NCBI GenBank assembly: GCA_964468355.1
Contig: CAYXSV010000036.1
Location: 1 to 58,351 of the forward strand
Length of the DNA stretch: 58,351 nucleotides
Direction of reading: 5' to 3'
Source of the DNA: an uncultured Gammaproteobacteria bacterium
GTDB lineage: Bacteria > Patescibacteriota > Microgenomatia > UBA12405 > JAHJSD01
Position numbers and translations under genes: made by a program. This document shows positions 2,273 through 49,445 of the stretch, piece after piece. The notes below the pieces were generated by a model. It was given only the letters and a program-made list of their open reading frames with translations. It had not been told where the DNA came from and made no database searches. Numbering within the stretch: position 1 is the stretch's first letter; the number at the start of each line of letters is the position of its first letter.

Positions 2273-3050
2273 ACAAAACCTGTCAGGATTATTTTTATTA
2301 CTTGCTGCCTGCAGTGGATTTTTAGCTGGAGTTATCTGGCAAAAATCAACTGCTCAACCAACAGCTCAACAAAACTACACTAAACAGCAAGAAAAAAATA
2401 TCCGGTTTAAACCGTCAAAGTCTGAACAACCAACGGTAAAAATTTATCTTAAAGGACGGCAAACAAACGAGGAAAATTTTAAAAAAAACATTAAAAAAGC
2501 AGCTGTTTTTTTTGGCGACAAAGTTAAATGGACACCTTACTATTATTTTTATTCAGATAATAATCCTAATGACCCAGGCAGATGCATCCAGACAGAAAAC
2601 AATTATCTATGTTCTTTAGAAAACCGATTTCAACTTAACCAAAACATTAGAGAAATATGCGCCTGGGAGTTAAGTGAAAATCGCCAAAACTGGTGGCAGT
2701 TTATTATTGAAACAGAAGAAAAGTGCCCGCTTTCAGAAATAGATCAATGTTGGCAAGCTGTAGCTAAGAATCTCAATCTGCCGGTTAATGAAATCCAGAA
2801 TTGTTTTAGCACCAGAGGAATAGATATTATTAAAAACCAAATAACAAATTTAAACAAAACAAAAATTGACCGCTTTCCAAAGATTGAAATTAATAATACT
2901 AATTTGCCTCTTTTAGCCGACGGTCACCAAATTACAACAAGTGTAAAAATTAATGAAAAATATTTTCGAAGCCAAGAAATTAACTCTGCCCAGTATTTTA
3001 TTTCGGCAATTTGCTCCTCTTTTGAACAAACACCGGAAATTTGCCAATAA
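2265..3050 (+). CDS. Hypothetical secreted/lipoprotein-like protein
   Basis: N-terminal LLLAAC lipobox-like signal. Several paired Cys. No recognisable catalytic motif. Confidence 0.45.
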   Translation: MNKQNLSGLFLLLAACSGFLAGVIWQKSTAQPTAQQNYTKQQEKNIRFKPSKSEQPTVKIYLKGRQTNEENFKKNIKKAAVFFGDKVKWTPYYYFYSDNNPNDPGRCIQTENNYLCSLENRFQLNQNIREICAWELSENRQNWWQFIIETEEKCPLSEIDQCWQAVAKNLNLPVNEIQNCFSTRGIDIIKNQITNLNKTKIDRFPKIEINNTNLPLLADGHQITTSVKINEKYFRSQEINSAQYFISAICSSFEQTPEICQ

Positions 3051-14276: not shown

Positions 14277-14362
14277 GCCGCGATGGTGGAATTGGCAGAC
14301 ACGCAGGTCTCAAAAACCTGTGAGGTTTACCCCTCGTGCCGGTTCGACTCCGGCTCGCGGCA
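14277..14362 (+). tRNA. tRNA-Leu (anticodon CAA), type II with long variable arm, no encoded CCA
   Basis: Folded by hand. Acceptor GCCGCGA/TCGCGGC, 3-bp D stem, anticodon stem CAGGT/ACCTG with loop CTCAAAA, variable stem GAGG/CCTC, T arm GCCGG-TTCGACT-CCGGC, discriminator A. Confidence 0.9.
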
Positions 14363-14365
14363 CAA

Positions 14366-29552: not shown

Positions 29553-29621
29553 CGTAACATGAAACACGTAACCCGTAACACGAAATAAAAAAAGATTTTG
29601 CATGTTACTTATTACGTTAAC
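29553..29621. repeat. Empty heptad hairpin unit 2 (identical 34-nt left arm; shorter right arm ATGTTACTTATTACGTTAAC overlapping the stop codon of the 29617 gene)
   Basis: Perfect 34-nt direct repeat of 29425-29458. Confidence 0.85.
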
Positions 29622-30246
29622 TATTCTCGTCTAAACAAAGAATCCAATCTCTTGTATTTACCGTCCCATTGTCATCAAAATCATACCTGGTATCACTTGT
29701 CCCAAATTTTTCTTTAAATTCACTTTTATCACAACTGGTTACTTTTTCAGACGGTTCAGACGGTTCAACCGGTTGTGTAGTAGCTTGCGGCTTCGGGCTC
29801 GGTTCAGCTGCCGGCATGTCCGTCGGCTCGACAACCGGCTCCGGCTCTTGAGATGCTGCCCCTTCTTCCTCTTTAGTTTTAAAAGAATAAGGAATACCGT
29901 TATTATCAAAAATCTCATCGTCTATTCTTAACCTAAAATAATAAGTCGTCTCTGATTTAAGCGGTGATAAAACCACCCGATGAGTTGTCCCCGGCTGATT
30001 TTCCAAAGCTCTTAAAAGCAAGCTGGCTGGAGTTGTACCATACTCGACAGTACCTTGGACTTCATTATCAGTCTGCCAGCTGACGGTCGCTGATTTAACA
30101 TCGGCCTCAACCCGGACATTCTGCGGTTCTTTTCCACCGGAAGCACCACTTAAATAAGTTTTAGCAGTTCTTACTCCAACTGCAGCTAAAACTCCGGTTA
30201 ATAACAAAATTACAATTATAATGACTGATTTTACCTTTTTCTTCAT
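29617..30246 (-). CDS. Membrane-anchored FN3-like domain protein with a C-terminal single dockerin-like Ca-loop
   Basis: Start set at MKKKVKS (ATGA overlap with the upstream stop). FN3/PAP-N-like PQNVRVEADVKSATVSWQTDNEVQGTVEYG...TTYYFRLR. P/E-rich linker. C...YDFDDNGTVNTRDWILC. Confidence 0.6.
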   Translation of the reverse strand: MKKKVKSVIIIVILLLTGVLAAVGVRTAKTYLSGASGGKEPQNVRVEADVKSATVSWQTDNEVQGTVEYGTTPASLLLRALENQPGTTHRVVLSPLKSETTYYFRLRIDDEIFDNNGIPYSFKTKEEEGAASQEPEPVVEPTDMPAAEPSPKPQATTQPVEPSEPSEKVTSCDKSEFKEKFGTSDTRYDFDDNGTVNTRDWILCLDENS

Positions 30247-30914
30247 AATGCTAACACCCAACTAAATAATAACATAATTCCTCCACCCAATGCAGCGATA
30301 AGTAAAGGAGTTTCTATACCTGTTTCCGGAAGCTCGCTCGGTGTAGGTGTTGGTTCTTCAGGAGCAGAAGTCGGCTGGGGTTCTTCTGTTGGTTCCGGTT
30401 CTCCGGCCCCGATTACGTAACTGCCGCTGCCGCAAGCAGCACAGTCAATTAAATCATTTCCCTGTTGATCCCAAATTGCAGAGTCAGTATCAACCCCGGA
30501 TTCACATAAAAAAGAAACTGAAGCTGTCCCTTCGGCAGTTGCTTCAAAACTAATAGTTGCAATTTCACCAACTCCGCTGTTGGTTACCAAGGCCTGTTCA
30601 GAAAAAGAATAAATCGTCAGCTTACCATTAGCGTTTTCAATATTATAATCAAACCCGGAAAAGAAATCACCTGCTGAAACCTGGTTAACTTTTAATTTAT
30701 TCTGGTCAAAACTAATTAAAGCGTCAGCGGCCATTGCTTCCTTATCTCCGGTGTCAATCTGAACAACCACATCAAAATTATCGCCAACATTATAATTACC
30801 TTCCGAGGGTTCAAAATACAAACGCGGACCGGCCTTAGCACCTACGGCAGATGCATGCCATATAAAAACAAAAACGATTATTGGTAATCCTAACCATTTT
30901 AATATTTTGTTCAT
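30243..30914 (-). CDS. Cohesin-domain protein with a C-terminal LPETG sortase sorting signal
   Basis: Signal peptide. Cohesin-like YFEPSEGNYNVGDNFDVVVQIDTG...ALISFDQNKLKV...GEIATISFEATAEGTASVSF. PT linker. LPETG (nt 30318-30332) followed by a hydrophobic tail. Confidence 0.7.
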   Translation of the reverse strand: MNKILKWLGLPIIVFVFIWHASAVGAKAGPRLYFEPSEGNYNVGDNFDVVVQIDTGDKEAMAADALISFDQNKLKVNQVSAGDFFSGFDYNIENANGKLTIYSFSEQALVTNSGVGEIATISFEATAEGTASVSFLCESGVDTDSAIWDQQGNDLIDCAACGSGSYVIGAGEPEPTEEPQPTSAPEEPTPTPSELPETGIETPLLIAALGGGIMLLFSWVLAL

Positions 30915-30921
30915 TTAAACC

Positions 30922-31506
30922 TTATTCAATATTCAAAACTAAATCTTCTTTAGTAAAACCGAACTCTTCTCCTCCGCCGGCAAGTACAGTACCTTCACTT
31001 CCTACAGGGGCGTAAACTTCAATCTTAGTTTGACCGGCAGCTAAACCCACCAATTTTATAGTCGATAAATTGGTTTGACTTCCTGCCTCAAAAACTACCC
31101 CTTCCGGAGCGTCGGTTTCAACCATAGAAATTAATACCCTTTCTTTTTCCGGCTCAACCCAATTACGGCCGACAAAAGAAAATTCGTCGGTAGGATCAGC
31201 CCCGATAATTTCAACTACATCCGGGTCATATTTAAGATAAATATCAACCCCGTCCAGATTTATCGTTTTTAAAGCAGTTAAAACTACTTTAAACGACTCC
31301 TCTTCTCCAGCACTTATTTGATTTTCACCTTCCAAGCTTATTATCGCCGGTTCTTGAACTTCGTTTATCTCATTCGGTGATGAAAAACGTTCTTTTACCG
31401 AGCCGGTTTTTAACTGTAATCGATTTACTACAATTACACTTTCTAAAATAATTAGTAAAGCCAAGGCCGGAATCAACCATTTCGTTTTTTCTATATTAAA
31501 ATTCAT
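30922..31506 (-). CDS. Membrane-anchored cohesin-like domain protein
   Basis: N-terminal TM helix. FKVVLTALKTINLDGVDIYLKYDPDVVEI...LSTIKLVGLAAGQTKIEVY. Confidence 0.55.
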   Translation of the reverse strand: MNFNIEKTKWLIPALALLIILESVIVVNRLQLKTGSVKERFSSPNEINEVQEPAIISLEGENQISAGEEESFKVVLTALKTINLDGVDIYLKYDPDVVEIIGADPTDEFSFVGRNWVEPEKERVLISMVETDAPEGVVFEAGSQTNLSTIKLVGLAAGQTKIEVYAPVGSEGTVLAGGGEEFGFTKEDLVLNIE

Positions 31507-31562
31507 TTTATTTATTTCACCCCTTATTAATTAATAACATTTAATTAATCTATTTTCAAGAT

Positions 31563-32687
31563 TTAAAGTTCGTCTTCGTATTTTGTACTCAGTGTTTCCA
31601 GGAAAAAGACAACATCCTGTGAATTGACAATCCCGTTAAAATTAATATCTTCTTCGATTTCACCTTCAACCATTAATGCTTGTTTCAAAGTGGTAAAATC
31701 AGCGCTGTTAACTACACCGTTTTGGTCAATATCCCCGGGCTCCAAATTAAGAGCAGTCCAATCAAACTCGTTTTCGCCGGCATTCAAAGTAATACCTTCC
31801 TCGCCGAGCCAGCAGTGTTCCACCTGCTCATCCTCACAAAAACGGCGGGCTAAATGGACCGGACCTTTTATTAAAACTGCATAGTTGTCCCCCGGCTCAA
31901 CCCCGACTAATTCTAAACTACCTGTCCCCACGGCTTGGTTATCAAATTCAACCATTACATCTTTATACCTTTGACTGATTCCATTACCTTTCACAATTAC
32001 GTCAACCGGCTGTGTTCCAATATCTTCAACAATTTTTTCCTGATTATTAACCAAATATTTTGTTCCTCCAAATGTAATTTGAAAAGACAATTCCGGCCAG
32101 CCGGCAGGCGGTTCAGTAGGAATTGGCGTCGGTTCGCCCCCTAAAACATCAATCTCCGCGTCGGAAAATGAACCAATATCCAAAACTCTATCATCAACTC
32201 CTTCAACCCCCTTTGACCCGACAAATGAAACAGCTGCTGTTTTAGACAGAGTACTACTGCCTTCATTTAATAATTTAAATTTAAAACCAGCTAAATTGAA
32301 CGGTTCAGCCGGAATTTGGCCGTCTGATTTTAAATATGAAACGGTTTCAACTACCCCCTCGTCAACTACCTGAGAAACGCCGTTATAATTCTCATTTAAT
32401 TCCACCGATTGAAATTCCAGAATATTAGGGTCATAACTAATACTGAAATGACCGCCGCTGACTAAATATTCTTCAGGCAGTACCTGCAATTGAACATTAG
32501 CTGTTTCTTGATCAAGGTCAACTTCTTGAACATCCGGAAGAAGCTGTAAGTTAATTTCTCCATAGGCAGCTTCTCTTCTTACTTCCTGGGTCTGCTTTAC
32601 CAAAATTAAACCGGCAAAGACGGATATAAAAGGAATTAAAAGTAACAAAACCAATATCCTATTTTTATAATCTTTTTGATTAGTCAT
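31563..32687 (-). CDS. Cohesin-like, beta-sandwich and canonical type-I-like dockerin protein
   Basis: N-terminal TM helix plus QTQEVRREAA. HFSISYDPNILEF cohesin-like region. C-terminal DIDQNGVVNSADFTTLKQAL...DINFNGIVNSQDVVFFLETL (two Ca-loop/helix repeats). Confidence 0.7.
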   Translation of the reverse strand: MTNQKDYKNRILVLLLLIPFISVFAGLILVKQTQEVRREAAYGEINLQLLPDVQEVDLDQETANVQLQVLPEEYLVSGGHFSISYDPNILEFQSVELNENYNGVSQVVDEGVVETVSYLKSDGQIPAEPFNLAGFKFKLLNEGSSTLSKTAAVSFVGSKGVEGVDDRVLDIGSFSDAEIDVLGGEPTPIPTEPPAGWPELSFQITFGGTKYLVNNQEKIVEDIGTQPVDVIVKGNGISQRYKDVMVEFDNQAVGTGSLELVGVEPGDNYAVLIKGPVHLARRFCEDEQVEHCWLGEEGITLNAGENEFDWTALNLEPGDIDQNGVVNSADFTTLKQALMVEGEIEEDINFNGIVNSQDVVFFLETLSTKYEDEL

Positions 32688-32689
32688 TT

Positions 32690-33994
32690 TTAAAATTTAG
32701 GCAACTCACTATACCACTGTTCAACATCATCTTCACTTAAAATACCGTCGCAATTAAAGTCACCGTATAAATTATCACTGCCTAACTTATAATCATCGTA
32801 CCAGCCGGCAAAATCTTCCATATTAACTGTTCCGTCACAGTCGTAATCGGCTTTAGACTCAATTTTAGTTCCGTCCGGACACGGCTTGCACCCGGTTTGG
32901 GGCTCCGTCGTGGCTGTCGGCTCCGGTGTATTAGTTGCACTCGGCGGCATCGTGGCTGTCGGTTCCGGCGTATTGGTTGCACTTGGCGGCATCGTGGCTG
33001 TCGGCTCCGGTGTATTGGTTGCACTCGGCGGTCTTGTGTTTGTCGGTGTCGGCGTACTTTCCGTACAATCCTGGACAAATACCGCTGTCCCTCCGGTATA
33101 ATCAATATCAACCGACTTTCCGTCTTCAGTAGTCCCGGCAACAATAGATTTACTCTCATTCAGATTAAAATTAAACCGCCCCGGTTCAGTGCCGGTAATC
33201 TCAACACCAATTCTAAAGCTCCTCGGCGGGTTACCACCGGCATAAAGCGAAGTTACAAGCAGCTCATTATTTCTGGCATCATAACCTCCCTCCCCCCACT
33301 TACTATCAAAAGTTACATTTTTAATTGTGCTTCTGGTCGAATCATAATCAAAATACAACTGCAAACCGGACATGCTTTTTCCTGAATCGCCTGAAACGGT
33401 TATTGTTCCCGTTTCTTGTGTGCAAAGATGCAAACTGCTCGGCTGGGAAATTGTAATTGTCTCACCTGCCGGACTGTCCGTCGGAGTGGAAGCCGGTGTA
33501 TTAGTATTAACCGGACTATCACAATCAACCACCTTTACCGTGGTATCACCGGATGCACTAATATTCATACTGTCATCTTCAAGTCCACTCATAAAACTTT
33601 TCCCGGTTAATAACCTAAAACTTGAATTGCCTAAACTTTTACCCCTTAAAGTAACATTAAATTGAATATTTTTTTGAGGATTTGCAAACATATGAGAACT
33701 AACACTTAAATCACCCTCAAAAATACTCCAAGTTTTGTTGACATCTTCAATCTCGACTTTACTATCATCAAATCCAAAGTCGAAAGCATAACTGGTTATT
33801 TTCTGGTTTGAACTGCCGCTTACCGCAAAAGTCTCCGTATCTCCCAAACACACTTCAACTTCTGAGGGAAGCTGAATATTCCCACCGCCTGCCGCCCCTC
33901 TTCTTGTTTCTAAATTTTCTCGAACAACATAACCGGCGAAGACAAGACTTAGCAAGCCAACTATACTGATAAAAGCTAATTTTAAGTTATTCAT
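32690..33994 (-). CDS. Protein with two Cys-stapled cohesin-like modules, a PT-repeat linker and a Cys-framed dockerin-like C-terminus
   Basis: N-terminal TM helix plus ENLETRRGAAGG. Modules VEVCLG...VVDC and HLCTQ...VQDC. Three copies of PPSATNTPEPTATM. CKPCPDG...DYDCDGTVNMEDF...DFNCDGILSEDDV. Confidence 0.65.
   Translation of the reverse strand: MNNLKLAFISIVGLLSLVFAGYVVRENLETRRGAAGGGNIQLPSEVEVCLGDTETFAVSGSSNQKITSYAFDFGFDDSKVEIEDVNKTWSIFEGDLSVSSHMFANPQKNIQFNVTLRGKSLGNSSFRLLTGKSFMSGLEDDSMNISASGDTTVKVVDCDSPVNTNTPASTPTDSPAGETITISQPSSLHLCTQETGTITVSGDSGKSMSGLQLYFDYDSTRSTIKNVTFDSKWGEGGYDARNNELLVTSLYAGGNPPRSFRIGVEITGTEPGRFNFNLNESKSIVAGTTEDGKSVDIDYTGGTAVFVQDCTESTPTPTNTRPPSATNTPEPTATMPPSATNTPEPTATMPPSATNTPEPTATTEPQTGCKPCPDGTKIESKADYDCDGTVNMEDFAGWYDDYKLGSDNLYGDFNCDGILSEDDVEQWYSELPKF
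32910..33031. repeat. 42-bp tandem repeat, about 2.9 copies (encodes the PPSATNTPEPTATM linker)
   Basis: Units at 32910-32951, 32952-32993 and 32994-33031 with a few substitutions. Confidence 0.9.
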
Positions 33995-34050
33995 ATACGT
34001 ATATTAATTAAACAATACAACATTTTTAAAAAAAATAAAAGTCCCAATTT

Positions 34051-36006
34051 TTAATCACAATTAGAATGTTCCGTTGGACACCATCGGGCATACCATATTT
34101 GATGATCCGAAACAGTAATATCCCCGTCGCAATCATAATCTCCATATAATTCATCTTTATCTACTCTCTGTCCGTCTAATTTAACTTTAGAATACTGCTG
34201 TGCCCATCGGCCGTAATCGACATTTTGTTTACCGTCGGTATCACAATTAAAACTAGATGTTCTAACAGGAGCAAAACTGCCGTCCGGACACGGCTTGCAT
34301 CTTTCTTCCCCACCCCCGACAACAATTTTCTGACTCAATAGGTTATTTTCTTCGTTAACTTCCTCAATCTGGTCTTCACGATCAACCCATACATAAACAT
34401 CGTGTTCGCCGGCTTCATCAAAGACATAATCATACGACCAGTCAAACTTTTTATCCGGTATCAACCAAACATGATGACCGTAATATGAAGTTTCCGGTGT
34501 TGCTTGCGTCGGGGGCTGTTGCTCCGGGTCTATATATAAATAAGTAGTAAAATCCCTAGTTGCCATTTGACCAATATTTTTAATCTCGGCCGTTATACTT
34601 ACTTCATCTCCGGGCTGCGGATTAGACGGGCTGTAACTAATACTAGAAATTGTCAAATCCGGCATTCTGTCATCCTCCACACAGGCCGAATCCGGGGCCT
34701 CAAATTCTATTAAATAAGAACCCTCGGGTAGTTCGCTTCTGCTCCATCTAGCATTGGGAATATAAGGATTCCAATACTCGCCGTAGGTTATCGCCGAATG
34801 CGGCGGATTGCCCCTTAATTGCAAAAATTCATCATTTTCACATTTTTCTCTTTCACACAACCCAACATATAATCCATTTCTTTCATCTGTACTAATTATG
34901 GTAGTCATTTTAGCTCCTATTCTTGAATCTTCTAAAACCGGCTCAAAAGGGTTTGGCGGCCAAGCTACATACCAGGTACTTACTTCAATATCCGCTATAC
35001 TTCCGTCCTCACATACCGCCGCTGTCTCTATATCCCACGATAAACTCTCTGAAACTATTGATACTACCCGGTTACAGTTACTACACTCAGCCGTAGCATT
35101 ATTACAAGTTCCAACTGGATTACCTGTACACCAATTATCCATTTCGTCATATACATTAGCTACAACATAATATTTACCCTGGGAAACACCTGAAACATCC
35201 CACTCTGCTTCCCAACCGTCACTGCCATTATTATCAGTGTCAATTACCGTCCAATTATTACTGTCACAGTAATAACTCTCAGTAGCATTCTCCTTGTATT
35301 CTGCGTAGGCAAATGTTACTTCTTTTAAATCGCCGTCCTCATCACTCGCTGTTGCCTTCACCAATGTCTTATCCTCACTAATAACGGAATTTACGGATAA
35401 ATTAGTGCATTCAGGTACATTTTCGCCTCCTGAGGCCGGCGTATTGGTTGGGTCAACCGGTGGAGCAGGCGTAGGCGTTGGGTCAACCGGCGGTGCAGGT
35501 GTGCTTGTCGGCTCTTCACCACAAATACAATCGGTGTCAGTTAAACAATCCGGGTTTCTGCAAACACCTGAACTTGATATTATTTCTCTTTCAAAATCAG
35601 TTGTTTCAATTAACTCTTGTGCTAACTGATCACTTTCTCCCATCACAACTCCGCCGCTGACCGTCTGACAGTTTCCATCTGGGCCACATACGCAATCCTC
35701 TCCTTCCGGAGGCATCACATCCGGACAGTAAACACCAGTATTCCTTGGTACACAATCTTGTCCGCACCACATACAATCCCTGTCTGAACTACAGCCCTCT
35801 TTATAACAAACTAAACCGCTTCCACACTGTGAATCGTCTGAGCAAGGTTGATTACAATCACTGACAGCGGCCTTGCGGGTTTCCTGCCTTTGCTGAACTA
35901 AGTTGATTGCCGCCGGTAAAGCAATTCCTAAAATTAGTAAACCCAAAATTATCGGCAATTGAGACATGCCCTTTTGCTGATATTTTTTATTTTTGATTAA
36001 ATTCAT
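34051..36006 (-). CDS. Large secreted cysteine-rich modular protein (Cys-knot modules, Ig-like, CARDB-like, Cys-framed dockerin-like C-terminus)
   Basis: N-terminal TM helix plus QQRQETRKAA. CNQPCSDDSQCGSGLVCYKEGC... modules. CARDB-like PDLTISSISYSPSNPQPGDEVSITAEIKNIG. The C-terminal 82 aa CKPCPDG...WCPTEHSNCD is a paralog of the 36546 gene's C-terminus. Confidence 0.65.
   Translation of the reverse strand: MNLIKNKKYQQKGMSQLPIILGLLILGIALPAAINLVQQRQETRKAAVSDCNQPCSDDSQCGSGLVCYKEGCSSDRDCMWCGQDCVPRNTGVYCPDVMPPEGEDCVCGPDGNCQTVSGGVVMGESDQLAQELIETTDFEREIISSSGVCRNPDCLTDTDCICGEEPTSTPAPPVDPTPTPAPPVDPTNTPASGGENVPECTNLSVNSVISEDKTLVKATASDEDGDLKEVTFAYAEYKENATESYYCDSNNWTVIDTDNNGSDGWEAEWDVSGVSQGKYYVVANVYDEMDNWCTGNPVGTCNNATAECSNCNRVVSIVSESLSWDIETAAVCEDGSIADIEVSTWYVAWPPNPFEPVLEDSRIGAKMTTIISTDERNGLYVGLCEREKCENDEFLQLRGNPPHSAITYGEYWNPYIPNARWSRSELPEGSYLIEFEAPDSACVEDDRMPDLTISSISYSPSNPQPGDEVSITAEIKNIGQMATRDFTTYLYIDPEQQPPTQATPETSYYGHHVWLIPDKKFDWSYDYVFDEAGEHDVYVWVDREDQIEEVNEENNLLSQKIVVGGGEERCKPCPDGSFAPVRTSSFNCDTDGKQNVDYGRWAQQYSKVKLDGQRVDKDELYGDYDCDGDITVSDHQIWYARWCPTEHSNCD
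35447..35506. repeat. 30-bp tandem duplication encoding the TPAPPVDPT(P/N) linker
   Basis: GTTGGGTCAACCGGTGGAGCAGGCGTAGGC / GTTGGGTCAACCGGCGGTGCAGGTGTGCTT. Confidence 0.85.
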
Positions 36007-36521
36007 TTAAATATACTCATTATCCATTTCCATAACTTTAAAAACTCACTATTTTTTTCACAGTTAATTACTTTAACATCACTTTCTCCGGAAACACTGA
36101 TGTTTATGTCTTCGTCTTCTATTCCTCCCATCCAGCTGTCAGTTTCTAGAAATTTAAATTTTGAATTTCCAATTTTGGCACCTTTTAAGTTAACATTAAT
36201 CTGGAAATCTTTTTGGGGGTTGTTAAATATATGAGAACTCACTTTTAAATCACCATCTTTAATGCTCCACGTGCGATCAACATCTTCTATCTCCACCATA
36301 TTTTGATCAAAATCAAAAGCAAACACGTAACCGGTTATTTCTTGATCAGCCCGGCTTGTAACAGTTAATTTTTTAATTTCACCTAAACAGACTTCGACCT
36401 GAGGAGGAAGAATAATTTTTCCCTCAGCTTTAACCGGTCTTACAAAAAATAAATCTTGTTTAATAATAAGGTGAAGAAATATCAAAACTATTAAGAAAGA
36501 ACCGTATTTGAGTTTTTTCAT
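36003..36521 (-). CDS. Secreted Cys-stapled cohesin-like single-module protein (paralog of the N-terminal module of the 32690 gene)
   Basis: PPQVEVCLGEIKKLTVTSRADQEITGYVFAFDFDQNMVEIEDVDRTWSI...VKVINC aligns with PSEVEVCLGDTETFAVSGSSNQKITSYAFDFGFDDSKVEIEDVNKTWSI...VKVVDC. ATGA overlap with the next gene. Confidence 0.55.
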   Translation of the reverse strand: MKKLKYGSFLIVLIFLHLIIKQDLFFVRPVKAEGKIILPPQVEVCLGEIKKLTVTSRADQEITGYVFAFDFDQNMVEIEDVDRTWSIKDGDLKVSSHIFNNPQKDFQINVNLKGAKIGNSKFKFLETDSWMGGIEDEDINISVSGESDVKVINCEKNSEFLKLWKWIMSIFK

Positions 36522-36545
36522 AAAATATAAAGTAGCTTAAATATG

Positions 36546-38873
36546 TTAATCACAATTTGAATGTTCTGTCGGACACCATCTGGCATACCATATTTGATGA
36601 TCAGAAACATTTATTTCTCCGTCACAATTGTAATCTCCGTATAATTGGTTACTAGGCACTTGTTTACGTTCAATTACAACCGCGTAATACTGCTGAGCCC
36701 ACCGACCGTAGTCAACATTCTCTTTACCATTCGTATTGCATTTAAAACTGGATGTATTTTGAGAAGCGAAACTACCATCCGGACACGGTTTACAACCTTT
36801 TCCGGGTCCCGGCGGTACAGTTGTCGGCTCAGATTCAGAAATACATTTACTATAATCGCTTGCCCATTTATAGCCGGTCGGCGGATAAAGCTCACAATTT
36901 ACAGCTCCGGAAGTGCCCTCTGTCTTTCCGCACCCTGAATGTCCCGGGCAATAATCAGATACACATTGAACAGCACAATTATCTTTTGTTGGACTACCAC
37001 AATCTGCATCTGTTTGACAAGTTTGTCCTGGTCTTACCGTTGGCGAAAGAGTATTTGTCGCCCGCGGCGCTCTTGTCGGAGTATTTGTCGGTGTTTCTTC
37101 ACATGCACTATCAGGACATTGACGATAACCACCGGGATTACTCGTATACCAATCACAACCATAACCACAAGTTGACGTTACACAATAGCAAATTTCTTCT
37201 GGTGGTGTTGGTGTATTTTCCGGATTTTCACATCTATCCGCCCAGCAAACTTCAATCGGGAAATAGGAATGCGGACCACAAGTTAAACCCTCCTTACACT
37301 CGTTATTTTGTAAGCATGTATCGCCACAATCTTTATTCCCGGCAGACGGCGTATTTGTCGGTGTTTCTTCCGGGATACAACATACCTCATTGTGGCCGCG
37401 GCAATCAGTAGGATCCACTGCCTTTTCACCAGTTTTACACCCTCCTACTCGACAAACCCCAGCATCAGAATCTCCCAGATAACCGCAAGTTTGTAATTTT
37501 GGTTCAGGCGTATTCGTTGGTTCAGGTTCACAACAATATTTATATCCTCCACCAAAATCTACTCCACACTTTTTAGCATACCAAACTTGACCTCCACAAT
37601 TTGCCGGTGGCACACATGACTCCTCTGGATCACAATCTACAAATTCCGGTTCACAAGCACATCCACCACCCACCATCTCACAACTCTCACCTGAAGGACA
37701 ATCCCCTACACACTCATTGCCATTCGGTGTCGACATCATACGGCATACACTTGGTGTATTTGTTGGAGCTCTAGGTGTATTTGTTGGCCGTGGCCCACAA
37801 TAACAGACAGTACCAACACAGTAATAACTGTTCTTGCAACGACTGCAATTAGGGAGAACAGGGTCAGTATATGTTTGACACCTGGTTCCATCTTGCAAGC
37901 CGGCTGACGGTGTAGGCGTAAAATTATAACAAGTACAACATGAGTCAACATCTCGACTTGTCGGGCTTGAACAGTGTCCGCCATCAACACCATGAACTTT
38001 TTGGCATGCTTCTGTACATGAAGAATATTCACCTAAACAACAAATACAATTATCGCAGGCCCGACATGTACCAGGCATTCCTTGCCTTAAATCACAATAT
38101 TTTGATTGACATTCGGAATTAGAACTACATTGCCAGCCATTTGGCTTCGGCGTACTTGTCGGCTGTGGTTTTGTTCGGCATGTACCAGGCATCCCCTGAC
38201 TTAAATCACAATAACTAGAACAACATTCCGAGTTGCTACCACACTGCGAACCATTGGATTTACAACTTGGTGTATTTGTTGCTCGCGGTCTTGTTGTATT
38301 TGTCGGTTGAGGTTTTGGGGTATTGGTCGGATAAGGTGAACAATTTGCATTACATGTACCTTCACTGGAATAAGTTCCGTCATAACCTTGGACACAATAC
38401 CCCAGAGAACGAGAACACTTCCATTTTAAATCAACTTCTCCATAACACTCACATTCTCCGTCAATAGTTGGATGGGGTTTACATTCCCTACCCGAAGCAC
38501 AGGTACCTACACATTGAAATCCTGCCGGAGTAAATTCTCCTCTGCACGTTTCTTCATAAGGCGTTGCCGTCGCTGGCGGTGGAGCTGTCTTACATTCGGC
38601 ACATATACTTGAATGCTGAGTACATTTTGGGCCACAATAACCTCTATCTACCCAATTACCGTCAACACACTCATAATCATGGCAATCACCTTGATTACAA
38701 TGTGTGCCCGTCAAGCCACCACATGTACTTGCCGCTTCTTTTCTTGTTTCCTGGCTTTGCTGGGTTAATCTTAATGCCGCCGGTAAAGCGACTCCCAAAA
38801 GTAGCAAACCAATTATAATCGGAACCTGCGCACTTCCGCGTTGATTAAAAATATTTTTAATTCTTGTTAACAT
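36546..38873 (-). CDS. Hyper-cysteine-rich (about 88 Cys in 775 aa by hand count) modular secreted protein with PTNTP linkers and a Cys-framed dockerin-like C-terminus
   Basis: N-terminal TM helix plus QQSQETRKEAA. About 10 Cys modules, each with an even Cys count, separated by P/T-rich linkers. Internal tandem module NG[SW]QC[GS]SNSEC.S.YCDL.QGMPGTCR x2. C-terminal CKPCPDG...WCPTEHSNCD. Confidence 0.65.
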   Translation of the reverse strand: MLTRIKNIFNQRGSAQVPIIIGLLLLGVALPAALRLTQQSQETRKEAASTCGGLTGTHCNQGDCHDYECVDGNWVDRGYCGPKCTQHSSICAECKTAPPPATATPYEETCRGEFTPAGFQCVGTCASGRECKPHPTIDGECECYGEVDLKWKCSRSLGYCVQGYDGTYSSEGTCNANCSPYPTNTPKPQPTNTTRPRATNTPSCKSNGSQCGSNSECCSSYCDLSQGMPGTCRTKPQPTSTPKPNGWQCSSNSECQSKYCDLRQGMPGTCRACDNCICCLGEYSSCTEACQKVHGVDGGHCSSPTSRDVDSCCTCYNFTPTPSAGLQDGTRCQTYTDPVLPNCSRCKNSYYCVGTVCYCGPRPTNTPRAPTNTPSVCRMMSTPNGNECVGDCPSGESCEMVGGGCACEPEFVDCDPEESCVPPANCGGQVWYAKKCGVDFGGGYKYCCEPEPTNTPEPKLQTCGYLGDSDAGVCRVGGCKTGEKAVDPTDCRGHNEVCCIPEETPTNTPSAGNKDCGDTCLQNNECKEGLTCGPHSYFPIEVCWADRCENPENTPTPPEEICYCVTSTCGYGCDWYTSNPGGYRQCPDSACEETPTNTPTRAPRATNTLSPTVRPGQTCQTDADCGSPTKDNCAVQCVSDYCPGHSGCGKTEGTSGAVNCELYPPTGYKWASDYSKCISESEPTTVPPGPGKGCKPCPDGSFASQNTSSFKCNTNGKENVDYGRWAQQYYAVVIERKQVPSNQLYGDYNCDGEINVSDHQIWYARWCPTEHSNCD

Positions 38874-38882
38874 TTTTATTTT

Positions 38883-39125
38883 TTATTGACAGCAATAAGG
38901 CGTCTCACTTGGACAATCGCCTTTGTTCCATTTCATATTTAATAAGTGACAATACTGCTCTTTACATTCTGTTTGGCAGGGATAACCAACCTGAGGCATC
39001 GAACTGCCGGCCGCCCCGCGCCGTGTTTCTTGAGTCTGCCTAACCAAAGCAACCACACCAGTCAATATAATTAAAACGAAAAGTATTAATAGAAGTTTTA
39101 AAATTTTCTGTTTACTTTGATCCAT
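38883..39125 (-). CDS. Small (80 aa) precursor: TM helix plus RQTQETRRGAAG motif plus a 6-Cys C-terminal peptide
   Basis: First gene of the operon. The C-terminal PCQTECKEQYCHLLNMKWNKGDCPSETPYCCQ has six Cys. Confidence 0.5.
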   Translation of the reverse strand: MDQSKQKILKLLLILFVLIILTGVVALVRQTQETRRGAAGSSMPQVGYPCQTECKEQYCHLLNMKWNKGDCPSETPYCCQ

Positions 39126-39230: not shown

Positions 39231-40598
39231 ATGGGAAAATTGCCGACGATACTAGCCATGCTTCTCATTATCCCTATTGGTTTATACGCCGTATTTCAAA
39301 ACCATGATTTGCGGCGGTCTGCGTTCGGTAAAAAAGCAGACATTAAAATCGACGTCTCCAAACCCGGGGGTTTAATTTCAAAATCTCTCTGGCAAAACTT
39401 TTCTCAAGGCGGAGAAGAACCAAAAGACATGATCGCTCCGGTCAAAAACGAGGTTGCCAATCTTCAGCCGGAAATCATCCGCATTGACCATATTTTTGAC
39501 TATTATGTTGGCATTAACGGTCGGGTTTATGACTTTTCAAAATTAGACCAAATAGTCCAAACTATTCTTGATACCGGTGCTAAACCAATGTTTTCTTTAT
39601 CTTACATGCCGCCGGAAATTGCTGTTGACGGCCAAAAGACTTCTCCGCCCCAAAACTGGAATCAATGGAATGAACTGGTTAAAGCGACTATTTCGCGTTA
39701 TTCAGGACAAAACAATTTTAATTTAAACAATATTTATTATGAAGTCTGGAACGAGCCGGATTTATTCGGCGGCTGGCACTATGGCCGGGAACCGAACTAT
39801 TTAACACTTTATTATCATACGGTTAAATCCGCCCAAGAAATAGAAAACGTCAACAATTTTAAAATCGGCGGCCCGGCAACCACCGGTTTCTACCCTAATT
39901 GGATCAAGGCCCTATTTGATTATTGCTACAAAAACAAGTTGAGAATTGATTTTGTTTCCTGGCACCATTATTCTAAAAATATTAATGAATATTTAAGAGA
40001 TTTTGAAAAATTAAATCAAATTTTGACCGATTACGGCGATTACTTTAATGTCGAGCGCTTAATTACCGAATACGGACCCGACTCGGAAAATTCCCCCTGG
40101 TATGACAATCATTTGGGTGCTGTTCACAGTTTAGCCGGAGTAACTAAATTAATGGGAAAAGTCCATCGCATTTTTGCTTTTCAGCTTAAAGACGGTCCTT
40201 CACCGGAAAGTAAAAAATATTGGGGACGGTGGGGTTTAATAAGCCACGAAAACCACGAAATAAGTTTAAAGCCGAGATATTACGCTTATCAATTTTTAAA
40301 TCAACTAGAAGGTCAACAGCTTCCTCTGGAAGGCGAGGGTTCCTGGGTATCGGCAGCAGCAGTTAAAAAAGATAATAAAATTCAAGTTTTAGTTGTTAAT
40401 TACGACCCGTCAAACAACCATTACGAATCCCCGCCGATTACATTAGAAAATATTGAGCCGGGCAACTATATTTTCCGCCAAATTAGATTCCAGGGACAAG
40501 CGGTTGCCTCAAGAGAAAAAATTGAAAAAACAACAATAACTAAAAAGTTTATTCTTCAACCCAATTCAGCAATTTTACTGGAATGGATTAAATTGTAA
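39231..40598 (+). CDS. Membrane-anchored clan GH-A glycoside hydrolase, GH39-like
   Basis: N-terminal TM helix. YYEVWNEPDLFGGW (acid/base NEP) and LITEYGPD (nucleophile E) in a (beta/alpha)8-like spacing. Confidence 0.6.
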   Translation: MGKLPTILAMLLIIPIGLYAVFQNHDLRRSAFGKKADIKIDVSKPGGLISKSLWQNFSQGGEEPKDMIAPVKNEVANLQPEIIRIDHIFDYYVGINGRVYDFSKLDQIVQTILDTGAKPMFSLSYMPPEIAVDGQKTSPPQNWNQWNELVKATISRYSGQNNFNLNNIYYEVWNEPDLFGGWHYGREPNYLTLYYHTVKSAQEIENVNNFKIGGPATTGFYPNWIKALFDYCYKNKLRIDFVSWHHYSKNINEYLRDFEKLNQILTDYGDYFNVERLITEYGPDSENSPWYDNHLGAVHSLAGVTKLMGKVHRIFAFQLKDGPSPESKKYWGRWGLISHENHEISLKPRYYAYQFLNQLEGQQLPLEGEGSWVSAAAVKKDNKIQVLVVNYDPSNNHYESPPITLENIEPGNYIFRQIRFQGQAVASREKIEKTTITKKFILQPNSAILLEWIKL

Positions 40599-40644: not shown

Positions 40645-41022
40645 ATGGGAAAAATAAATTATTTTACCGACTTAAAAGCTTGGCAAATAAATCACCAAGT
40701 AGCTTTAAAAATATATAAATTAACGGAAAATTTTCCATCAAATGAAAAATACGGCCTAACTGATCAGCTACGAAGAGCAGCATCTTCTGTTACTGCTAAC
40801 ATTGCAGAAGGTTGGGGACATTACCATTTTGCTAATCGCTTAAGATTTTATTACAACGCCCGTGGGTCAAATTGTGAGGTGCAAAACTTTCTTATTTTAG
40901 GAAAAGATTTGGAATATATCGATAAATCTAAGTACAAAAAAATTGTAGAAGAAGTTTTCGAAGGATTTAGAGTATTAAACGGTTTGATTAAATCAGTCAA
41001 AAAACTCAATAAAAACAAGTAA
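40645..41022 (+). CDS. Four-helix-bundle protein (23S rRNA intervening-sequence protein / Avd-like family)
   Basis: FTDLKAWQ...ALKIYKLT..FP..EKYGLTDQLRRAASSVTANIAEG...F..RL.FYY.ARGS..EV matches the family pattern. Confidence 0.85.
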   Translation: MGKINYFTDLKAWQINHQVALKIYKLTENFPSNEKYGLTDQLRRAASSVTANIAEGWGHYHFANRLRFYYNARGSNCEVQNFLILGKDLEYIDKSKYKKIVEEVFEGFRVLNGLIKSVKKLNKNK

Positions 41023-47262: not shown

Positions 47263-47820
47263 TTAGTCAAAATCAACCCAGTGTTTGGAGGCAGTCGGGC
47301 CCTTTTGACCTTGATATTTACTTTTTAATTTTTTACTTCCATAAGCATTTTCAACTTTGCTGGTCATTTTATAAAAGACTATCTGCGCAATCCGCATACC
47401 GGCATACATTCGAATCGGCAGGCGTGAAATATTGGCAATTTCAAAAGTAAGCCAGCCGGAAAAACCGGGGTCAACATAACCGGCGGTAGCATGAACAATC
47501 AATCCCAGCCGGCCCAAAGAGCTTCTACCCTCCAGTTTTGCCGCTACACTTAACGGCAAAGTCACTTTTTCCGCAGTCGAGCCAAGAATAAACTCTCCGG
47601 GATGCAAAACAAATCCAGCTTCTTTAATTTTAACCACCCGTGAAACATCCTCCTTTTTCCGAACGTCTATTTCGCCTTGATTCCAGTTATCAAATACACG
47701 CACCTCTTCGCTTAACTCTAAATCCAAACTGGAAGGTTGAAGATTTTCCGGTTTAAAAGGGTCAATTTTAATCTTTCCGCTCTTAATCTTATTTTTAATA
47801 TCTTTATCTGAAATAATCAT
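47263..47820 (-). CDS. dcd: dCTP deaminase (dUTPase superfamily)
   Basis: MIISDKDI...I.P......QP.S.DL.L, GRSSLGRLGL, and GFSGWLTFEI motifs. Confidence 0.88.
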   Translation of the reverse strand: MIISDKDIKNKIKSGKIKIDPFKPENLQPSSLDLELSEEVRVFDNWNQGEIDVRKKEDVSRVVKIKEAGFVLHPGEFILGSTAEKVTLPLSVAAKLEGRSSLGRLGLIVHATAGYVDPGFSGWLTFEIANISRLPIRMYAGMRIAQIVFYKMTSKVENAYGSKKLKSKYQGQKGPTASKHWVDFD

Positions 47821-48581
47821 TCCTTTAATTTACCAAAGACTAATAACCGTTTCAATATTGTCCCCGGCGGCCAGCAGGTCTGAAGAATTATCTCCTCACG
47901 TCCCGGCTGATAATCAGTTAAGTAAGAAATATCTTTGGCTCCGACAATCTTCTTATCAAAAATTTGATAAGTATAAGGCCGGTTTTGGTAAACCAAGTGA
48001 ACTTCATCACCCGGCTCCAGCTTATTTAACAAAAAGAAAACCGCATTATAACGGACCACATTCCATTCGGCATTAGTTGAATGAGCAAAAAGAAAAACCG
48101 GCTTAGTTGACCCGGGTAAACCGCTTCCGGCTGCATGAGCGACACCGTCTTTTAAAACTTCCTGATAAATTTCAGGTTTGCCGGGATCAATGTTGGGAAA
48201 TACTTGAGCACTGGACTCTAATTTGGGAATATAAACTGAAAAATCCTTGTTTATAACCGGCCAGTCATCCGGAACTTCTGGTATCGGCATTGGAGTCGGT
48301 GTTAGGGTCGGAGTCGGATTACCTCGTAGGGACAAGTCGCGACTTGTCCCTACATCCACTCTCTGCCAATGATATCCAGCCATTGCTCTGGCCAACGGCA
48401 GCCAAAGATAAGTTAAATACCCTAAACACAAAATAACCGCTCCCGTTCCCAAACCAAAAACAAATGTTCTTATTTTTGACGGGTTATAAAAAATAAGCTG
48501 TTTTTTACCTTTCTTTGGTTTAACTGCCTTCTTTAATTTCGGATCAAAAAAATCTTTCATGGTTGCTTTCTTATTATACAT
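47817..48581 (-). CDS. Sortase-family transpeptidase (membrane-anchored)
   Basis: N-terminal TM helix, PT linker, VFLFAHST (His), ILQTCWPPG (TLxTC-type Cys), and a downstream Arg (KRLLVFG). Confidence 0.8.
   Translation of the reverse strand: MYNKKATMKDFFDPKLKKAVKPKKGKKQLIFYNPSKIRTFVFGLGTGAVILCLGYLTYLWLPLARAMAGYHWQRVDVGTSRDLSLRGNPTPTLTPTPMPIPEVPDDWPVINKDFSVYIPKLESSAQVFPNIDPGKPEIYQEVLKDGVAHAAGSGLPGSTKPVFLFAHSTNAEWNVVRYNAVFFLLNKLEPGDEVHLVYQNRPYTYQIFDKKIVGAKDISYLTDYQPGREEIILQTCWPPGTILKRLLVFGKLKE
48326..48353. repeat. Perfect 28-nt palindrome GTAGGGACAAGTCG|CGACTTGTCCCTAC inside the sortase linker coding region
   Basis: 14+14 nt self-complementary. Encodes ..GTSRDLSLRG.. between the TM helix and the PT linker. 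Confidence 0.95.
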
Positions 48582-48758: not shown

Positions 48759-49445
48759 ATGGAAAACGTCATTCCGGGCAAGGCCATAATTACTGGTATT
48801 ACTACTATCTTAATTGGTATTGCAGCTATCGTGGCTGGAGTTGCTTTTCTTCTCAGTTTAAGTTTAAGTTTGGCAAGTCCTGTCGGCGCTTATATGTATG
48901 GTGAAGAACAACCGACTTCCCAACTTATAGTTGACAAACAAATCACTACTTCGGAAAACATAAATTGGCAGGATAATCTACCTGCTACCCAAGAAGTGCT
49001 CCGAGAAGGTGATTTAGTAAAATTTAAAATTACTATAAAAAACAGCGGAGACAAAGATTTAATAAATATAGAAGTAATTGATTCTCTGCCTGAATACTTA
49101 ACTCCTGTTTTTAATCCCGGAGAATATGATCAGGAAAATAATAAAATAAAGTGGAAAATTGAAAAATTAAACGCCGGTGACCAAAAAACATTTGAGATTC
49201 GGGCCCATATTGATTCAAGCAACCAAGAATTAATTGAAGGGACGCAGTGCTTGATTAACAAAGTAGAAGCAGTTGCTGAAACCGGCGAATCCGACCAGGA
49301 CACTTCTTCTTTTTGTATTACTACTCCTCAGGTGCTTCCTGAAGCCGGCAGCGGCGTCAGCGAAATATTAGTCGGAACAGGATTTGCGGCAATGATCGGC
49401 CTAGCCGGTGTAATTTTAAGAAAATTCGGCCGCGGCCAAATTTAA
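48759..49445 (+). CDS. Surface protein with a DUF11/CARDB-like beta-sandwich and an LPEAG sortase sorting signal
   Basis: GDLVKFKITIKNSGDKDLINIEVIDSLPEYL. LPEAG (49335-49349) followed by a TM segment and an RKFGRGQI tail. Lies next to the sortase gene. Confidence 0.65.
   Translation: MENVIPGKAIITGITTILIGIAAIVAGVAFLLSLSLSLASPVGAYMYGEEQPTSQLIVDKQITTSENINWQDNLPATQEVLREGDLVKFKITIKNSGDKDLINIEVIDSLPEYLTPVFNPGEYDQENNKIKWKIEKLNAGDQKTFEIRAHIDSSNQELIEGTQCLINKVEAVAETGESDQDTSSFCITTPQVLPEAGSGVSEILVGTGFAAMIGLAGVILRKFGRGQI

Follow-up and report, generated by a model that had tools for sequence, protein, structure and literature searches.

A nine-gene operon in a 58,351-nt stretch of metagenomic DNA (contig CAYXSV010000036.1; here called the window) encodes three proteins that each end in a small Cys-containing module opening with the motif CKPCPDG, close to genes for cohesin-like modules bracketed by Cys residues. 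The locus raises the question of what the CKPCPDG modules are and whether they plug into the cohesins encoded beside them. We find that the modules are divergent dockerin homologues, that they form a compact sub-clade bound up with a single conserved operon, and that their subtype covaries with the class of cohesin encoded immediately downstream. The operon lies on the minus strand (29617–39125), with intergenic distances of −19 to +56 nt and with products, in order of transcription, of 80, 775, 172, 651, 434, 374, 194, 223 and 214 amino acids (aa).

Three proteins of one operon end in CKPCPDG modules

Translation of the open reading frames (ORFs) and motif mapping placed the modules on the minus strand exactly where a model reading the DNA alone had put them (hereafter the original prediction), at the C-termini of the 775-, 651- and 434-aa proteins (Table 1), with CKPCPDG at 36774–36794, 34279–34299 and 32870–32890, respectively. 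The back-translated motif occurs three times in the window against 0.00 expected from 100 shuffles. The original prediction treated the three modules as one shared variant with two loops in dockerin register each. All three are indeed homologous and dockerin-like, but they belong to two subtypes with different downstream partners, and the claim of two register loops stands for the short type and for loop 2 of the long type only.

The short-type module of the 434-aa protein has the loops DYDCDGTVNMED (32813–32848) and DFNCDGILSEDD (32726–32761). The long-type module of the 775-aa protein has, besides its CxxC hairpin, a degenerate loop 1 (SSFKCNTNGKENVDY, 36708–36752), a canonical loop 2 (DYNCDGEINVSD, 36600–36635) and an additional C-terminal Cys pair (WCPTEHSNCD); the loops of the 651-aa module are SSFNCDTDGKQNVDY (34213–34257) and DYDCDGDITVSD (34105–34140). 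Loop 1 of the two long modules follows the pattern SSF[KN]C[ND]T[ND]GK[EQ]NVDY, which begins with Ser, contains one inserted residue and, in the 775-aa protein, has Lys at position 3. The two long modules are identical at 61 of 82 residues (74%). Their DNA identity, put at 80–85% by eye in the original prediction, measures 75.1% (187/249) and reaches 87% only across the last 99 nt.

The modules are divergent dockerin homologues

Of 37 family members, 28 match Pfam Dockerin_1 at E ≤ 1, the best of them at E 5.5e-8. Against a gathering threshold of 22.9 bits, two of the three window modules score 12.7 and 12.2 bits and the other falls below the reporting level, and because it is their relatives that reach Dockerin_1, dockerin membership is transitive at the superfamily level and does not hold for the window sequences alone. 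With the family profile as query, the top 11 matches in the PDB were all dockerin-bearing chains (E 0.004–0.06), and the alignments with 4fl4_A, 5nrm_B and 4dh2_B covered both loops. Comparison of hidden Markov models, which the original prediction had proposed as a check, also returned a match: hhalign against 16 canonical dockerins gave E 3.7e-5 at 71% probability, over 23 columns only. Loop 2 of the aligned modules has Asp at position 1 in 34/34, Asn or Asp at position 3 in 33/34, Asp or Asn at position 5 in 30/34, Gly at position 6 in 28/34 and Asp at position 12 in 34/34. The duplicated loop-plus-helix arrangement of PF00404 is complete in the short type; the 775- and 651-aa modules have half of it, because their loop 1 begins with Ser and carries an insertion.

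Structure prediction with AlphaFold2 (AF2) for the 775-aa module, using a 37-sequence alignment, gave a mean predicted local distance difference test score (pLDDT) of 93.9 and a predicted template modelling score of 0.84; from the single sequence no confident fold was obtained (pLDDT 36.5). The model consists of a β-hairpin (residues 5–6 and 12–13), a helix (29–44), a three-residue helix (51–53) and a second long helix (66–80). Both long helices start at about loop position 10, as in F-hands, with the short helix between them and no entering helix. Foldseek searches of the PDB with this model placed three dockerins at the top (2ozn_B, 4fl4_D and 2y3n_B), with weak statistics (E 1.4–6, target-normalised TM-score 0.26–0.55, root-mean-square deviation 3.0–5.3 Å), and it returned no EF-hand proteins.

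Other assignments were rejected. The modules share the Ca loop with EF-hand pairs (Pfam EF-hand_7) but lack the entering (E) helices; against PF13499 the short module scored 21.2 bits, under the 30-bit cut-off, and the long modules gave no match. The E values of the short module in the Pfam search were 3.9e-4 for EF-hand_7 and 0.15 for Dockerin_1, and neither match reached its cut-off. Thrombospondin type 3 repeats, which are reportedly disulfide-stapled DxDxDG Ca-binding repeats (Kvansakul et al., 2004), have extracellular Asp-rich Ca loops with conserved Cys nearby, as here. The likeness is one of principle only, since those repeats fold around Ca2+ nearly without secondary structure and lack an exiting helix, whereas the modules have helices and no family member matches Pfam TSP_3. 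A zinc ribbon or knuckle was set aside because there is only one CxxC and the best Pfam zinc-ribbon match, found in 4 of 37 members, has E 0.015.

A rare family with a short and a long subtype

We searched 1.84 billion cluster representatives exhaustively with HMMER and a profile of the three modules, and obtained 76 proteins at E ≤ 1e-3 (labelled P00xx below). About half carry a single C-terminal module of the CKPCPDG kind, and the rest are canonical multi-dockerin proteins. Contig scans supplied nine further loci (related loci and contigs are labelled L0xx), and re-alignment of the retrieved proteins and loci left 36 distinct module sequences with all four Cys. The metagenomic search for the CKPCPDG signature that accompanied the original prediction as a suggestion has in this way recovered a rare but genuine family. 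A word-indexed homologue search with the three modules returned only a 43-aa fragment identical to the window's own protein.

Short-type members are about 66 aa long, with loop 1 ADYDCDG and both loops canonical. Long-type members are about 80 aa, with loop 1 T-S-Y-x-C-x-T-x-G (Ser-initiated, with one inserted residue) and a linker longer by about 10 residues; the closest relatives of the window modules also share the C-terminal WCPTEHSNC[DQ], with two further Cys. Placement in the family is nearly always C-terminal. The cargo comprises Cys-rich proteins with Pro/Thr linkers, a Peptidase_C11 protein (P0013) and cohesin-bearing proteins (P0003, P0019 and L001); by eye, the cargo of P0057 resembles a glycoside hydrolase. 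One retrieved protein of 1417 aa (P0026) contains 14 dockerin-like loops, many with C-x5-C just before them (KPCTNASPCKGDFDCDGDVD), a differently arranged Cys-stapled Ca-loop architecture.

The related contigs come from metagenome-assembled genomes labelled 'Patescibacteria group bacterium' or, less plausibly, 'uncultured Gammaproteobacteria'. The host of the operon is probably an uncultured Patescibacteria-type bacterium.

The Cys-bracketed modules are divergent cohesins

The bracketed modules were found where the original prediction had located them, one in the 172-aa protein (from VEVCLG, 36381–36398, to VINC, 36060–36071) and two in the 434-aa protein (Table 1). None reaches the gathering threshold of Pfam Cohesin (PF00963; 24.1 bits): the scores are 14.7 bits for the 172-aa protein and, for cohesin 2 of the 434-aa protein, 22.5 bits (E 1.4e-4). 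Among ten bracketed modules (alignment A6), four match Pfam Cohesin at E ≤ 1, the best at E 0.0019, and a profile of A6 matched no solved cohesin among the PDB sequences. Their cohesin identity, also part of the original prediction, is established through the bona fide cohesins of the operon, because the A6 profile matched none on its own: hhalign of A6 against the unbracketed cohesins from the same operons (alignment A7) gave 96.5% probability and E 9.5e-10 over 102 columns, and the A7 profile matches 30 solved cohesins at E 1e-7 to 0.09. The bracketed modules are divergent cohesins on this evidence.

The only invariant columns of A6 are a Cys in the first strand and a Cys following the last strand. 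The first and last of the nine strands are neighbours in the cohesin jelly-roll, which would allow the two Cys to bond. The cohesins of a scaffoldin in L011 have an internal Cys pair (SGCNPSGSDCP) in place of the bracket.

Dockerin subtype covaries with the downstream cohesin class

The system is syntenic in about twenty independent metagenomic contigs. Its core, in the order adaptor (cohesin, middle domain and canonical dockerin), ~195-aa cohesin, LPxTG cohesin and FN3 protein, is kept, adaptor orthologues included, in L002–L007, L011–L013, L015, L017 and L019, usually with GH39 and RseP genes upstream and YqeY-YbeY-DnaX downstream. Loci differ in the genes that precede the adaptor, and these differences are correlated. 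In 9 of 10 long-type cases, the first cohesin of the next gene is bracketed (775 to 172 and 651 to 434 in the window; L002, L003, L004, L010, L012, L013 and L018), and in all eight short-type cases the next gene encodes an adaptor whose cohesin is unbracketed (434 to 374 in the window; L005, L006, L011, L014, which is partial, L015, L017 and L019). The difference, with a bracketed cohesin next in 9/10 long versus 0/8 short cases, gives a one-tailed Fisher p of 2e-4, a value that overstates independence because the loci are phylogenetically related.

In the reverse direction, a search with the bracketed cohesins as query yielded two further proteins and no more, the first in L010 again and the second in a new locus, L021, where a long-type module lies directly upstream of a bracketed cohesin and a scaffoldin with two bracketed cohesins comes next, as in the window. 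With L021 included the long type conforms in 10 of 11 cases, and the adjacency rule holds in 18 of 19 loci. L020 is the sole exception, with a long-type gene preceding an unbracketed cohesin. That cohesin protein (L020 4529–5803) itself ends in another Cys-dockerin variant (ACSCERAL...GDFNCDGRTDLDD...DFDCTDG).

The adaptor varies along with the gene upstream of it. The C-terminal 178 aa of adaptor orthologues are 53–63% identical irrespective of class, whereas their cohesins are only 25–27% identical between classes (alignment score 56–81), against 35–38% (score 184–232) within the unbracketed class at similar overall divergence. The socket thus appears to switch with the upstream plug. Where there is no scaffoldin of the 434-aa kind, an adaptor with a bracketed cohesin directly follows the long-type gene (L002, L003, L012 and L013).

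The original prediction paired each large Cys-rich protein one-to-one with an adjacent gene for bracketed cohesins. That pairing describes the long type. The short type is followed by the unbracketed adaptor cohesin, and for this reason we regard the 434-aa protein as a scaffoldin or converter and not as a third cargo. The most economical reading of these sequence patterns is that several cohesin-dockerin specificities operate in one operon.

Predicted disulfides of the CxxC hairpin

Cys at loop position 4, listed in the original prediction among the traits of the variant, is present but does not distinguish it. The same residue is common in ordinary dockerins, including Ruminococcus flavefaciens 5n5p_B ('GDVNCDGDVNVAD') and 5lxv_B ('ADLNCDGVIDSDD') and dozens of canonical repeats, and we rejected it as a novelty. 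The new features are the N-terminal CxxC extension (C-K-P-C-P-D-G), predicted to form a hairpin, and the Cys-bracketed cohesins. No solved dockerin aligned to the extension, the PDB alignments all starting at profile position 10 or later, and we found no report in the literature of CxxC- or disulfide-stapled dockerins or of a cohesin-dockerin operon in Patescibacteria.

Of the 34 aligned modules all have C22, and no fewer than 33 have each of C4, C7 and C60. Variants carry as many Cys upstream as in the loops, one and one in P0018, P0066 and P0061 and two and two in L011 and P0065. C4 and C60 are both missing together from P0018, P0061 has two modules with one upstream and one loop Cys, and P0065 combines C-x6-C with two loop Cys. 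The hairpin Cys are most likely disulfide-bonded to the Cys at loop position 4, as predicted from these patterns; two disulfides are favoured over a four-Cys metal site because the Cys vary in pairs, Cys counts are even in 8 of the 9 operon proteins, and the cohesins have two invariant Cys. The dockerin at the end of the upstream protein in L011 (3–263) has a separate Cys a few residues before each loop (GECVIGDADCDGEVDYLDF ... GQCIGNDNSVYGDTSCNGSVEYIDF).

It is unlikely, in our estimate, that the same fold instead uses the CxxC and the two loop Cys to bind a metal such as Zn2+ in a zinc-knuckle-like clamp, in which case stability would depend on metal and not on redox state. CKPCPDG does resemble the CPxCG knuckle of rubredoxins and zinc ribbons, the four Cys are conserved jointly in 36 sequences, a metal would suit an anaerobic lineage, and there are weak Pfam matches in four members to Zn_ribbon_PADR1 (best E 0.015) and in three to Cu-binding_MopE. 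However, all zinc-family matches fall far below cut-offs, and Cys are lost or gained as upstream-plus-loop pairs (P0018, P0066, P0061 and L011), a loss that would destroy a tetrahedral site. Cys pairs also recur elsewhere in the system, in the cohesins with exactly two invariant Cys and in the C-terminal pair of the long type.

A proposed tiered surface assembly and its alternatives

We consider it reasonably probable, judging from sequence and context, that the divergent CxxC-hairpin dockerins serve as plugs in a tiered, cellulosome-like surface assembly. The CKPCPDG modules would be duplicated Ca-loop-plus-helix F-hand domains that gained an N-terminal CxxC β-hairpin, and the hairpin-to-loop disulfides would amount to a covalent form of the dockerin intramolecular clasp. 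The short type probably binds two Ca2+ ions and the long type one. At the base, sortase would fix the 223-aa LPETG cohesin to the wall. The canonical dockerin of the adaptor would dock there, or else into the 194-aa cohesin anchored in the membrane. The 434-aa scaffoldin would enter the unbracketed cohesin of the 374-aa adaptor with its short-type module, and the long-type modules of the 775- and 651-aa cargo proteins would enter the bracketed cohesins, two in the scaffoldin and one in the 172-aa protein. Lineages without a scaffoldin would mount cargo directly on the adaptor through whichever subtype and cohesin class they have. We infer physical binding, the assignment of plugs to sockets, their orthogonality and Ca2+ dependence, and the disulfides with their connectivity from the modules, their context and their covariation.

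Several observations speak against parts of this scheme. The window modules stay below the Dockerin_1 threshold, the hhalign match to dockerins is short and of middling probability, the Foldseek statistics are weak, and the long type departs from the canonical Ca loop in its loop 1. L020 breaks the adjacency rule, and the relatedness of the loci tempers its significance. The two loops of canonical dockerins lie at opposite ends of the domain, so one CxxC could reach both loop Cys only with an extended N-terminal segment or an altered arrangement of the loops. Patescibacteria are usually anaerobes, which makes extracellular disulfides less certain. No Dsb- or VKOR-type oxidoreductase was found by Pfam among the 40 other ORFs of the window, although 58 kb is uninformative on absence; a 261-aa secreted protein (2265–3050, plus strand) with a weak thioredoxin-like VSR_TRX match was rejected as an oxidoreductase because it has no CxxC active site.

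A bolder version goes further, and we regard it as doubtful. One Ca2+ site of the long type would have been replaced by stapling, with the CxxC hairpin bonded to both loops and a third disulfide at the C-terminus. Together with its disulfide-locked cohesin it would form a partly or wholly Ca-independent, mechanically reinforced, single-orientation pair, holding adhesin- or toxin-like Cys-rich cargo on ultra-small episymbiotic Patescibacteria for host contact. The short, long, canonical and half-dockerin modules would then be four mutually orthogonal specificities in a nine-gene operon.

The modules might also be Ca-binding tails, dockerin-like in structure but not docked to the neighbouring cohesins, that attach to glycans of the host or the environment or to some other surface structure, or that simply stabilise the protein; adjacency would then reflect merely a shared surface-protein operon. 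Many non-cellulosomal dockerin-like modules reportedly have no known cohesin partner (Peer et al., 2009), and our profile also retrieves W-type repeats in proteins without cohesin context in these data (P0038, P0053 and P0063). Nevertheless we think such tails improbable: over 19 loci the dockerin subtype covaries with the downstream cohesin class, and the adaptor cohesin switches class in step while the remaining adaptor is conserved, which is hard to explain without physical interaction. The operon, moreover, holds little besides its six cohesins and five dockerin-type modules.

Binding to cohesins could be real and yet not follow adjacency, with the long type docking directly into the 223- or 194-aa cohesin, for example, and the bracketed cohesins taking the half-dockerin or another ligand. 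The long-type module that precedes an unbracketed cohesin in L020 would fit such a scheme, as would the excess of cohesins (six) over full dockerins (four) and the unassigned partners of the 194-aa cohesin and the FN3 half-dockerin. The agreement of 18 of 19 loci with the adjacency rule, the outcome of the reverse search and the scaffoldin-less loci, in which a bracketed adaptor cohesin comes directly after the long-type gene, make this very unlikely. The idea that there is no real domain, and that Asp/Gly/Cys-rich sequence produces the resemblance by chance or through its composition, can be dismissed: the modules are short, with sub-threshold single-sequence scores against curated families and no confident single-sequence model, but CKPCPDG occurs three times where none is expected, the family has conserved columns in 36 distinct sequences from independent metagenomes, the alignment-based model is confident (pLDDT 93.9), and the genomic context is kept.

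Comparison with known systems

By sequence profile and by fold, the best matches of the window modules are type I dockerins (PF00404; C. thermocellum CelS, 1daq and 2mte; Cel9, 4fl4). Both have two tandem segments of a 12-residue Ca loop and a helix with a short linker helix, the same loop consensus (D1, N/D3, D5, G6, hydrophobic 8 and D12), and a C-terminal position on secreted cargo after Pro/Thr linkers, encoded beside cohesin genes. The window modules differ in their N-terminal CxxC hairpin of 13 residues, which none of the matched solved dockerins has, in Trp for Leu/Ile on both helices (W35 and W72), and, in the long type, in a 13-residue Ser-initiated loop 1 and a linker about 10 residues longer; their scores lie below the Pfam cut-off.

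In the sca cluster of R. flavefaciens, ScaE is reportedly sortase-anchored and the gene order is said to mirror the pairings (Rincon et al., 2005, 2007). This cluster (ScaC/ScaA/ScaB/CttA/ScaE; PMC5934362, PMC5301203) is the closest described system, with several tiers and several dockerin groups encoded in one cluster. The ScaC dockerin binds the cohesins of ScaA and ScaB, and the ScaB dockerin binds the cohesin of cell-surface ScaE, anchoring the complex to the envelope (PMC5934362). Some R. flavefaciens dockerins also share the Cys at loop position 4 (5n5p_B and 5lxv_B). Unlike the sca system, the operon described here has Cys-rich proteins and not plant-cell-wall enzymes as cargo, no X-module, a small-genome Patescibacteria-type host, dockerins with a CxxC extension and cohesins with a Cys bracket.

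The nearest known concept for the hairpin is the intramolecular clasp, in which residues just before Ca loop 1 stabilise the dockerin (Slutzki et al., 2013; PMC3821032). Clasp mutations in ScaADoc lowered stability and weakened cohesin binding by about one order of magnitude (PMC3821032). Known clasps are non-covalent (Trp-Pro stacking, a salt bridge or Tyr-Lys) and join the N- and C-termini, whereas the putative Cys-Cys bonds here would join an N-terminal extension to the Ca loops; the clasp paper does not mention cysteine or disulfide (PMC3821032).

The module profile also retrieved W-type dockerin-like repeats from Planctomycetes, Patescibacteria and others (P0038, P0053, P0063, P0073, P0040, P0056, P0057 and P0072), which share the loop-helix consensus (GDxNxDGxVDxxDFxxW), with Trp four residues past D12. 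Unlike the CKPCPDG family, these repeats mostly lack upstream Cys and have no cohesin context in these data. Intermediates with an upstream C-x2-C or C-x6-C and Cys in both loops exist (P0052, P0057, P0068 and P0065).

Other features of the operon and its flanks

Coordinates of the modules and genes are collected in Table 1. The GC content is about 37–42%, and the operon is flanked by housekeeping genes (CysRS, DnaX, YbeY, SSB, RseP, RRF, EF-Ts and S2) and by a GH39 gene. Searches of Pfam, NCBIfam and PDB sequences returned no match for the cargo part of the 775-aa protein, and for the cargo of the 651-aa protein only a CARDB domain (residues 449–558, Pfam E 1.8e-15), with no PDB match. Rfam and tRNA scans detected no RNA element in the operon; the sole match was a tRNA-Leu (Leu-CAA, 14277–14363, plus strand). 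Long opposite-strand ORFs at the linker repeat of the 434-aa protein (for example 32897–33385) are artefacts of repeat composition.

Table 1. Features of the cohesin-dockerin operon and the sortase gene (window coordinates; TM, transmembrane segment)
Feature	Coordinates	Strand	Remarks
80-aa secreted protein, six Cys, first operon gene (GYPCQTECKEQYCHLLNMKWNKGDCPSETPYCCQ)	38883–39125	−	Orthologue at L012 5738–5995
Cargo part of 775-aa protein (36546–38873): N-terminal TM/signal with QETRKEA, many small Cys-rich units, Pro/Thr linkers	36795–38873	−	88 Cys in whole protein
Long-type module, C-terminus of 775-aa protein, ending GCKPCPDGSFASQNTSSFKCNTNGKENVDYGRWAQQYYAVVIERKQVPSNQLYGDYNCDGEINVSDHQIWYARWCPTEHSNCD	36546–36794	−	Pfam Dockerin_1 12 bits, E 0.2
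172-aa protein: signal/TM, one Cys-bracketed cohesin (VEVCLG...VINC), short amphipathic C-terminal tail (LKLWKWIMSIFK)	36003–36521	−	Pfam Cohesin weak, E 0.035
Cargo part of 651-aa protein (34051–36006): TM/signal with QETRKAA, Cys-rich N-terminal region, CARDB	34300–36006	−	32 Cys
Long-type module, C-terminus of 651-aa protein; architecture and ending as in 775-aa protein	34051–34299	−	
Cohesin 1 of 434-aa protein (32690–33994): VEVCLG (33842–33859) to VVDC (33521–33532)	33521–33859	−	52% identical to 172-aa cohesin
Cohesin 2 of 434-aa protein: HLC (33422–33430) to VQDC (33065–33076)	33065–33430	−	
Pro/Thr linker, cohesin 2 to short-type dockerin of 434-aa protein (MPPSATNTPEPTAT)	32908–33031	−	42-bp x 3 tandem repeat, 91% matches
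Short-type module, C-terminus of 434-aa protein, ending GCKPCPDGTKIESKADYDCDGTVNMEDFAGWYDDYKLGSDNLYGDFNCDGILSEDDVEQWYSELPKF	32690–32890	−	CxxC hairpin, two canonical loops
374-aa adaptor: unbracketed cohesin (residues 63–168), conserved middle domain, canonical type I dockerin	31563–32687	−	Loops 31698–31733 and 31614–31649
194-aa protein: N-terminal TM and cohesin	30922–31506	−	Pfam Cohesin weak, E 0.022; member of A7; kept in every related locus
223-aa anchoring cohesin, C-terminal LPETG (30318–30332), hydrophobic tail	30243–30914	−	Pfam Cohesin E 3.6e-12
214-aa FN3/Pur_ac_phosph_N protein, ending in a single F-hand loop (DFDDNGTVNTRD, 29647–29682)	29617–30261	−	Two conserved Cys flank loop
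Sortase gene	47817–48581	−	Pfam Sortase E 9.2e-19; NCBIfam TIGR01076 sortase_fam 43 bits, cut-off 39.35

Both domains of the 374-aa adaptor exceed their Pfam cut-offs (Dockerin_1 E 1e-6, Cohesin E 3.3e-5). The 223-aa cohesin has the features of a sortase-anchored surface protein, namely an LPXTG motif with a hydrophobic segment, alongside a sortase gene elsewhere in the window. Downstream of LPETG it reads 'IETPLLIAALGGGIMLLFSWVLAL', without the usual basic tail, and the Gram_pos_anchor match is weak (Pfam E 0.097). The sortase, encoded 9 kb from the operon and 17 kb from the LPETG cohesin, is likely the enzyme that attaches this cohesin to the cell wall; a gene for a DUF11-repeat surface protein (48759–49445, plus strand) adjoins it. 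At the C-terminus of the 214-aa protein, the single loop and helix (YDFDDNGTVNTRDW) lie between conserved Cys (SCDKSEF...ILC) and are kept in L002, L003, L005, L006 and L007. This C-terminal loop may be a naturally truncated half-dockerin; truncated dockerins have been reported in R. flavefaciens (PMC12270676).

The 80-aa six-Cys mini-protein has no dockerin and is also encoded upstream of a Cys-rich cargo gene in L012. At the N-termini of the 775-, 651-, 434-, 374- and 80-aa proteins and of most homologues, a hydrophobic segment is followed by Q-E-T-R-[RK]-x-A (variants QETRKEA, QETRKAA, LETRRGA, QEVRREA and QETRRGA), which may be a lineage-specific export or processing signal. Small single-cohesin proteins (the 172-aa protein; L010 782–1321; L011 175–819; L021 392–934) carry at their C-terminus a short stretch of amphipathic or hydrophobic character (LKLWKWIMSIFK, GIINWFISLFKN and ILKWFLSILGL) that could be a membrane or surface anchor.

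Divergent from the operon lies a gene for a GH39-family glycoside hydrolase (39231–40598, plus strand), found at the equivalent position in L013, L015 and L017–L020; given this positional conservation, GH39 may functionally belong to the system. Between it and RseP is a gene for a 23S rRNA-intervening-sequence protein, a four-helix bundle (40645–41022, plus strand), as also in L013 and L017. Elsewhere the window encodes an XerC/D-type tyrosine recombinase (8412–9365, minus strand) and a 1053-aa ORF (51498–54659, plus strand) with no Pfam match.

Significance

Cellulolytic Firmicutes provide the best-understood cohesin-dockerin systems. The window holds a complete multi-tier set, comprising cargo, scaffoldin, adaptor, sortase-anchored cohesin and sortase, beside housekeeping genes of a small-genome uncultured lineage. 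The principle of a dockerin plugging into a cohesin, with several specificities per organism, is already known, so the advance lies in the variant and its biological setting and not in the mechanism. For protein engineering, a small Cys-stapled dockerin with matching cohesins, apparently in two or three orthogonal specificities, would extend the set of parts for designer scaffolds, and would be of greatest use if binding proved less Ca2+-dependent or more force-resistant.

For bacteria thought to live attached to hosts, the operon offers a candidate, testable system of surface organisation whose cargo is Cys-rich proteins and not cellulases. A dockerin-domain protein has been reported as essential in a cultivated Saccharibacterium (PMC10633639). 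The importance of the system would grow if the staple replaces a Ca site or if the Cys-rich cargo mediates attachment to the host.

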